A model generated the notes under the pieces. That model did no database searches. It saw only the letters and a list, made by a program, of their open reading frames with translations, and had not been told where the DNA came from. Positions 17,155 to 18,262 of a stretch of DNA of 64,000 nt are shown here, in pieces. Origin of the DNA: Escherichia coli (lineage in GTDB: Bacteria > Pseudomonadota > Gammaproteobacteria > Enterobacterales > Enterobacteriaceae). The DNA is taken from assembly GCF_046105845.1 (NCBI RefSeq), contig NZ_CP151004.1. One strand, 5' to 3'. The stretch's first letter is position 1, and each line of letters begins with the position of its first letter. The position numbers and the translations under genes were made by a program.

Positions 17155-17555
17155 ATTTTTCCCTAAATAGTCAGTATGTTGAAACTTTTTATTGTGAGAT
17201 TTGTTGCAAAAACCATCTGACCATAACGCCAGCAGCCGGGGAAAGGAAGGATTATCTGCGGTTTTTGTGATGAAAAGCAGGATGATTATATTTAACCCAG
17301 TAAATACGTTCCTGTCGTTTTTTGTAAAAAAAATGTTTATTACGCGATGTAAGAATACATTAATTTTGCGTTTATTATGATGAATCCTCTGCAAATGAGC
17401 GAAATTTGATAGAACATTTATCTGCTGTACGATTTAATAAACTTAATGATACAGCATTACAAAAACAATCGAAGTTTATAAAGATGATTTCTGATTGACC
17501 AGCCCCCTACCCTACAATGGTGACTAATTTTATTACTCCCGAAGGAGATGATGAT

Positions 17556-18041
17556 ATGAATATATCAAATGTGAATAGCAACAACACGACATCTTTACCT
17601 GTAGAGCTAGATACACTAAATAACAAAGGTATCTCTTATGCCAAAGATCTCTTTTTATATATAGAAACACAGTTAAAAATTGCAAAAGATTTTTGTAGAC
17701 CTGGAGAAGAAGTATCAAGTTCTATTGCAAGTACAGTTTTTCACGCATTTATTGATTTAGTTAACAAAATCATGGGTAAGAAAGATTGTATGTATATTTG
17801 CACGCTTTGCTGTTTTGCCGAGGAGGTTAAAGGTGATTATTCTCATTACAGGACCTTTTTATTTGATATTGGTAATCAATATAAGGTTAAACTTACACAA
17901 AGCGGAAAAAAAGAGTTCTCTTTAACTTTAGAATTTAACGATACTATAATTGAATCTCAGATAGTCACAGGCAATAAGGCAAAGCATATTCTTGAGGATA
18001 TAGAAAAATTCTATCGTAACAAACCCGATACTTATTATTAA
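17556..18041 (+). CDS. Hypothetical protein, AT-rich orphan ORF (161 aa from the ATG at 17556; 174 aa if the in-frame ATG at 17517 is used)
   Basis: Long ORF in a strongly AT-rich segment; GGAGATG Shine-Dalgarno-like sequence before the 17556 ATG; no family recognised from the translation. Confidence 0.55.
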   Translation: MNISNVNSNNTTSLPVELDTLNNKGISYAKDLFLYIETQLKIAKDFCRPGEEVSSSIASTVFHAFIDLVNKIMGKKDCMYICTLCCFAEEVKGDYSHYRTFLFDIGNQYKVKLTQSGKKEFSLTLEFNDTIIESQIVTGNKAKHILEDIEKFYRNKPDTYY

Positions 18042-18229
18042 ATTTAATAATGGTTAGATGTGCAAAAATTATTATTCCACACGGTAAAACAGGGAAAAGT
18101 ACTCCAGAACATTGGGATAAACTTAACAAGTTAGAACTAACAACGTTTTATTACCTCTCACGTAGAACGATGGCATCAAAAAAATCATCTATAAAGCAAG
18201 AGTGAAAGCGACGACAGTTTAATTTCACT

Positions 18230-18253
18230 GCAGGCTGGATAACTCCAGCCTGC
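18230..18253. terminator. Hairpin immediately downstream of tyrB
   Basis: gcaggctgga-taac-tccagcctgc perfect 10-bp stem; no strong U-tract on either strand. Confidence 0.4.
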
Positions 18254-18262
18254 TTTCCTGCA

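Follow-up and report, generated by a model that had tools for sequence, protein, structure and literature searches.

An intact allele of the Escherichia coli orphan gene yjbS in an AT-rich islet between aphA and tyrB

We identified an intact allele of yjbS (E. coli K-12 b4621), hence an already annotated gene, in a 64,000-nucleotide stretch of E. coli DNA (the window). K-12 YjbS is annotated as an uncharacterised 67-aa protein, whereas the window encodes a complete 161-aa protein. An earlier note on this DNA recognised no protein family for the product; this was right as to function, but the existing gene name was overlooked. The reading that we favour, with reasonable though far from full confidence, is that YjbS is an orphan confined to E. 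coli: a conditionally useful intracellular accessory protein that is silent in the laboratory and is drifting to loss in many lineages. It would not be a housekeeping protein, nor is it a demonstrated secreted effector.

The reading frame and its AT-rich islet

The full-length yjbS coding sequence occupies positions 17556-18041 on the plus strand (161 codons plus stop in the open reading frame list) and is predicted to encode a soluble product of 18.5 kDa with a pI of 5.9. The ribosome-binding site AAGGAG, read from the sequence at 17542-17547 (plus strand), is followed 8 nt later by the ATG at 17556. An upstream ATG would add a 13-codon N-terminal extension (17517-17555, plus strand) for a total of 174 aa. 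Translation of this extension is improbable, and since a Shine-Dalgarno sequence is absent 5' of 17517, the 161-aa protein is the likely product. PGAP likewise begins the gene at the 17556 ATG (MNIS...) in other genomes. The earlier description of an open reading frame of 161 to 174 codons with a good ribosome-binding site was borne out.

The gene lies between two minus-strand core genes identified from the open reading frame list and from annotation of orthologous loci: it is divergent from aphA (16441-17154) and convergent with tyrB (18263-19456). All 18 E. coli loci that we examined have the gene at this aphA-tyrB position, divergent from aphA. Around yjbS, a variable cassette of 968 bp (17294-18261) extends from the aphA promoter region to the tyrB stop codon. 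Its GC content is about 0.31 (0.29-0.33 in 300-nt windows across 17150-18200), compared with 0.45-0.60 in the flanks and 0.504 in the whole window. The borders are sharp. One edge coincides exactly with the tyrB stop codon and the other lies 139 nt upstream of the aphA ATG; alignment to Escherichia albertii and to an E. coli locus with a different occupant, the Kgu island described below (L021), stops at 17293 and restarts at 18262. The AT-rich islet within core genes and the isolation of the reading frame had both been described correctly.

The upstream non-coding part of the islet (17294-17541, plus strand) would hold any yjbS promoter. A consensus scan found one promoter-like match inside the islet (17406-17433) and a second outside it, in shared aphA-proximal DNA (17265-17292). 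Match counts in promoter and terminator scans of the islet were not above those of shuffled sequences. Within the downstream non-coding part (18042-18229), a 51-aa open reading frame (18050-18205) was considered as a partner gene and rejected because indels and high diversity disrupt it in other alleles. An inverted repeat read from the sequence, GCAGGCTGG-ATAACT-CCAGCCTGC (18230-18253), adjoins the tyrB stop. This repeat is likely the tyrB terminator and possibly also terminates the convergent yjbS. It is specific to the islet, with Kgu-type genomes carrying another hairpin at that position, and was not called by a simple terminator scan. A search of the islet for RNA genes (Rfam) returned only a chance-level snoRNA match.

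Coding status and allelic decay of yjbS

Two observations mark yjbS as protein-coding. First, the reading frame is longer than chance allows. We randomised the 950-nt islet 5000 times under a first-order Markov model; the longest open reading frame then averaged 51 +/- 16 codons, about a third of the length of yjbS, and the probability of reaching at least 161 codons was 2e-4. Second, yjbS alleles show a synonymous excess: 21 of 63 segregating sites are synonymous and 42 nonsynonymous, where 19% synonymous is expected (binomial p = 0.006). The corresponding dN/dS-like ratio is 0.48, with pairwise dN/dS values of 0.13-0.66. The ratios of the flanking genes are 0.08 (aphA) and 0.13 (tyrB), and yjbS dN is about 10 times theirs.

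Nucleotide diversity points in the same direction downstream of the gene, being 0.025 in the reading frame and 0.065, or 2.6 times as high, at 18042-18215; over 17266-17555 it is 0.033, near the value of the reading frame. These data show that constraint on intact yjbS is weak but real and that the gene is dispensable. The ratio of 0.48 could be a blend of earlier constraint and recent relaxation. That intact YjbS is functional is suggested by population genetics, on the small counts of 63 segregating sites.

The islet DNA is 95.4% identical to that of K-12 (1113 nt), and the window protein shares 83-95% identity with its full-length relatives. K-12 YjbS aligns with the window protein over residues 1-46, nearly identically, up to the point of its frameshift. 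Alignments and haplotypes place this first frameshift at 17695 (plus strand), where a G present in the window is missing from the K-12 allele, yielding the 67-aa YjbS. The K-12 allele also has A6 where the window has an A7 tract (17906-17912, plus strand). The K-12 product is therefore a frameshifted stump. Because this stump serves as its reference, PGAP tags intact copies of 167-173 aa as 'frameshifted' or 'incomplete'. We had considered these labels as a sign of decay and dropped them when the translated loci turned out to be intact. A literature search with O157 locus tags found nothing relevant.

Of 19 loci examined, 12 have intact alleles of 161-173 aa. Strain 1190, for example, carries an intact allele. 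DNA and protein alignments attribute the length differences to an in-frame 18-bp repeat (KD(I/F)SYA-type, about six residues; 17631-17648, plus strand), which is present in one copy in the window and in two or three copies in the 167- and 173-aa alleles. All repeat-number variants are in frame.

Across E. coli, the A7 tract is a hotspot at which frameshifts and deletions inactivate the gene. We identified 1497 records with the K-12-type A6, 143 with A6 plus a deleted T, and 309 with the 10-bp deletion of the O157 type, which shortens YjbS to 119 aa in O157:H7/O55:H7-type alleles. In-frame A7 types account for 1178, 641 and 174 records. The hotspot is disrupted in about 1949 records, through no fewer than three distinct lesions, and keeps the frame in about 2048, so that about 45% of yjbS carriers are broken there, K-12 and O157:H7 included. 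IS1 insertions were also found in yjbS, and they arose repeatedly in K-12 clones that had evolved with macrophages (PMC4999529). The gene has been knocked out independently several times, chiefly by slippage or deletion at a single A7 tract, with K-12 losing the G in addition. Given this share of broken carriers, and with no copy at all in a fifth of E. coli, any benefit of yjbS is small or niche-specific.

The same observations feed a rival reading that we consider appreciably less probable but worth taking seriously, namely that yjbS is a relic without present function, which arrived as a coding sequence that E. coli never needed and survives in intact copies that have not yet been hit. The recurrent independent lesions (the lost G with A6, A6 with a deleted T, the 10-bp deletion, IS1) fit a relic, as do the elevated dN, the fifth of E. 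coli that lack the gene entirely, the variability of the cysteine patch and of many surface positions, and the H-NS binding and low promoter-island output reported in K-12 (PMC3661553). However, stops arise easily at a GC content of about 31%, and yet about 2000 genomes of diverged lineages keep 161-173 codons open, and synonymous divergence between alleles reaches 0.14. The significant synonymous excess, the lower diversity of the reading frame than of the adjacent downstream DNA, and the in-frame repeat-number changes likewise count against a relic.

Orphan status, predicted structure and the type III effector question

We identified relatives of YjbS only within E. coli. A word-index search returned 63 matches and an exhaustive HMM search of 1.84 billion representatives returned 28, all of them variants or fragments of the one E. 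coli gene; no relative from outside E. coli was found among the 1.84 billion representatives. A scan of GTDB species genomes gave a match in one other genus, on a 'Flavobacterium' contig that proved to be E. coli contamination. No match was obtained in Pfam (even at E <= 10), NCBIfam or PADLOC, PHROGs gave sub-threshold matches only (best E 0.0088), and PDB sequences matched at chance level. A tblastn search against phages and plasmids found no phage or true plasmid copies, the 'plasmid' matches being mislabelled chromosomes. Fold comparison gave no significant match either, and checking the 161-aa product by family and by structure thus placed it in no characterised family.

The window contains another AT-rich orphan that is likewise dominated by E. 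coli, the DUF2713 (PF10897) gene yjbL/yjbM (25262-26218, minus strand). This gene is intact in the window, where it encodes 318 aa; in K-12 it is split between two annotated genes. Paralogy with YjbS was considered and rejected (BLASTP E 0.059 over 42 residues, hhalign probability 0.2%, Smith-Waterman z 0.6), and YjbS does not match the DUF2713 profile, Pfam giving nothing even at E <= 10.

An AlphaFold2 model of YjbS (pLDDT 64, pTM 0.62), of modest confidence and built on a very shallow alignment (Neff about 1.1), predicts disorder in residues 1-26 (pLDDT below 50). According to this model, YjbS (about 18.5 kDa) would be soluble and cytoplasmic, with a polar tail of some 26 disordered residues followed by a compact domain that comprises three helices, a five-stranded antiparallel sheet and, at the C-terminus, a further helix. 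The proposed lack of a transmembrane helix agrees with a Kyte-Doolittle 19-mer maximum of 1.05. Foldseek linked YjbS weakly to a set of uncharacterised proteins from enterobacteria, among them UniProt B7NEY7, Q8XC25, A0AAN3TTQ2, A0A376VBI9 and A0A2X2HGS0.

The earlier note had also drawn attention to a cysteine-rich patch. The sequence CMYICTLCC exists, but it is not a conserved site, because C78 (to F), C82 (to F) and C85 (to R) differ between alleles. With three of the four cysteines variable among intact alleles, a metal or redox site was rejected.

The suggestion that the protein is a type III effector fared poorly. According to this idea, YjbS is a substrate of the LEE or ETT2 secretion system with its polar, disordered N-terminus as the signal, a reading that we rate as very improbable. 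The Asn/Ser/Thr-rich N-terminus had been quoted correctly: residues 1-25 are 56% Ser/Thr/Asn/Pro/Gln with few charges, compared with 21% for the remaining residues. This share tops the 37 long open reading frames of the window (the EspX5-type YjcF reaches 44%), although such composition is not specific to secretion signals. This N-terminus, with its predicted disorder, is the sole feature of YjbS that is still compatible with secretion. Like many effectors, yjbS is AT-rich and horizontally acquired. Phylogroup B2 is not known to carry ETT2. The islet is missing from Kgu genomes, and if these are mostly B2, its distribution would parallel that of ETT2 in a manner confounded by phylogeny.

Several observations count against export. 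Comparison of YjbS with effector families and solved structures gave no significant similarity, only matches at chance level, and the islet holds neither a chaperone gene nor a partner reading frame. The gene occupies a single chromosomal slot rather than T3SS-associated elements, and none of its copies is on a prophage or true plasmid, the usual home of exchangeable effectors. The O157:H7 lineage carries the LEE type III system, and K-12 has no functional type III system. In the sampled O157:H7/O55:H7 loci the product is cut to 119 aa, and in K-12 to 67 aa.

Two EspX-type genes do lie in the window, as had been noted: those for the pentapeptide-repeat type III effectors EspX5/YjcF (3494-4786, plus strand) and EspX4/YjbI-type (34255-35835, minus strand). 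Since espX4 and espX5 are routinely listed for ordinary non-LEE isolates, their proximity carries little weight, and YjbS is unlike either product. Its weak Foldseek neighbours differ from the EspX5 cluster. The structure model obtained for YjcF was very poor (pLDDT 34). A resemblance of YjbS to an EspX-type or PipB2-like N-terminal domain (PDB 2LEZ) was tried and rejected (BLASTP negative, Smith-Waterman shuffles z below 0.6). The neighbouring EspX-type proteins themselves gave no PipB2 match, and their Foldseek neighbours do not overlap those of YjbS.

A more speculative pair of readings, which we hold to be long shots, would make YjbS a functional, E. coli-specific protein with an undescribed fold, which its disordered Asn/Ser/Thr-rich N-terminus directs to export by a type III system (LEE or the cryptic ETT2), or a recently born or captured gene caught between fixation and loss. 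In the latter case, the A7 tract would act as a crude on/off switch. The weak Foldseek neighbours of YjbS would then point to a hidden family of such proteins.

One chromosomal slot with two occupants

Of 5426 complete E. coli genomes, 4379 have the yjbS islet and 1048 have, at identical junctions, the 13.7-kb Kgu (alpha-ketoglutarate) island (the sum, 5427, exceeds the number of genomes because one is counted twice via a 116-nt piece). Occupancy of the slot is mutually exclusive. The Kgu island (c5032-c5041) functions in alpha-ketoglutarate utilisation in UPEC (Cai et al. 2013, PMC3694859). Although both occupants share the chromosomal slot and the same two junctions, the Kgu island is made up of metabolic and two-component genes, has a normal GC content and shares no sequence with the yjbS islet.

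The site also differs in related organisms. Salmonella has a 186-bp gap between aphA and tyrB. E. albertii has a Kgu island that is colinear with that of E. coli MS 200-1, a strain that probably belongs to phylogroup B2, at 90% identity, equal to that of the flanks. Because E. albertii carries the Kgu island, the yjbS islet is best read as a derived state that replaced it in most E. coli without Kgu, and comparison with E. albertii suggests that the Kgu state of the slot is probably ancestral. On the basis of synteny, a 968-bp AT-rich cassette would have brought yjbS and taken the place of the 13.7-kb Kgu island, the ancestral occupant, in the lineage from which most non-Kgu E. coli descend.

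Horizontal acquisition, which had been proposed from composition and isolation, is supported by the foreign composition, the sharp borders, the different states of the site in Salmonella and E. albertii, and the lack of relatives outside E. coli. The presence/absence survey showed that the islet is not universal in E. coli, and its GC content stayed low on recount.

The K-12 tyrB/yjbS locus has been listed as a predicted foreign promoter island bound by H-NS in two ChIP data sets (PMC3661553, Table 1), those of Kahramanoglou and of Oshima (binding code K). It is one of 78 K-12 promoter islands, which have dense promoter-like signals and little productive transcription (PMC3661553), and the same list includes sister loci in the window (yjbI, zur/yjbL and yjcF/actP). 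In K-12 TraDIS data, Tn5 insertion density at yjbS is low, which fits an occluded locus (PMC5821084). The H-NS silencing suggested in the earlier note is therefore supported through the orthologous K-12 locus, and the reading of horizontal transfer with H-NS binding was already known from this published listing. As published for K-12, H-NS coats the AT-rich stretch; the same would hold in the present strain, leaving yjbS essentially silent in ordinary growth. Panyukov and Ozoline (2013; PMC3661553) handled the locus as regulatory DNA beside a 67-aa gene and missed both the longer ancestral yjbS reading frame and the alternative Kgu occupant.

These observations raise the alternative that the DNA of the islet matters rather than the protein, with an H-NS-bound promoter island or insulator lying between the tyrB terminator and the aphA promoter and the reading frame being incidental. 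We think this very improbable. The K-12 listing and the islet origin of the tyrB terminator hairpin are consistent with it. An H-NS-motif-like 10-mer occurs 4 times in the 968 bp, compared with about 1.5 per kb in the window, but this frequency is expected from AT-richness alone. Such a DNA element leaves unexplained the open frame of 161-173 codons, the synonymous excess and the good Shine-Dalgarno spacing. Moreover, a 186-bp spacer suffices in Salmonella, and Kgu-type genomes carry entirely different DNA at this position.

In practical terms, the analysis matters for annotation and for keeping the evolutionary record straight. What is annotated in K-12 as the 'gene' yjbS is the remnant of a 161-173-aa gene after two frameshifts, and the NCBI annotation pipeline spreads the resulting error when it marks intact copies as frameshifted. 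The well-known Kgu island of UPEC and the yjbS islet exclude one another as alternative states of a single slot; in Escherichia, the Kgu state is probably the ancestral one and not a UPEC acquisition. An activity or secretion of YjbS would be interesting if true, though present evidence makes neither likely. With its weak selection while silenced and its natural knock-out series, yjbS offers a tractable example of a species-restricted orphan gene.

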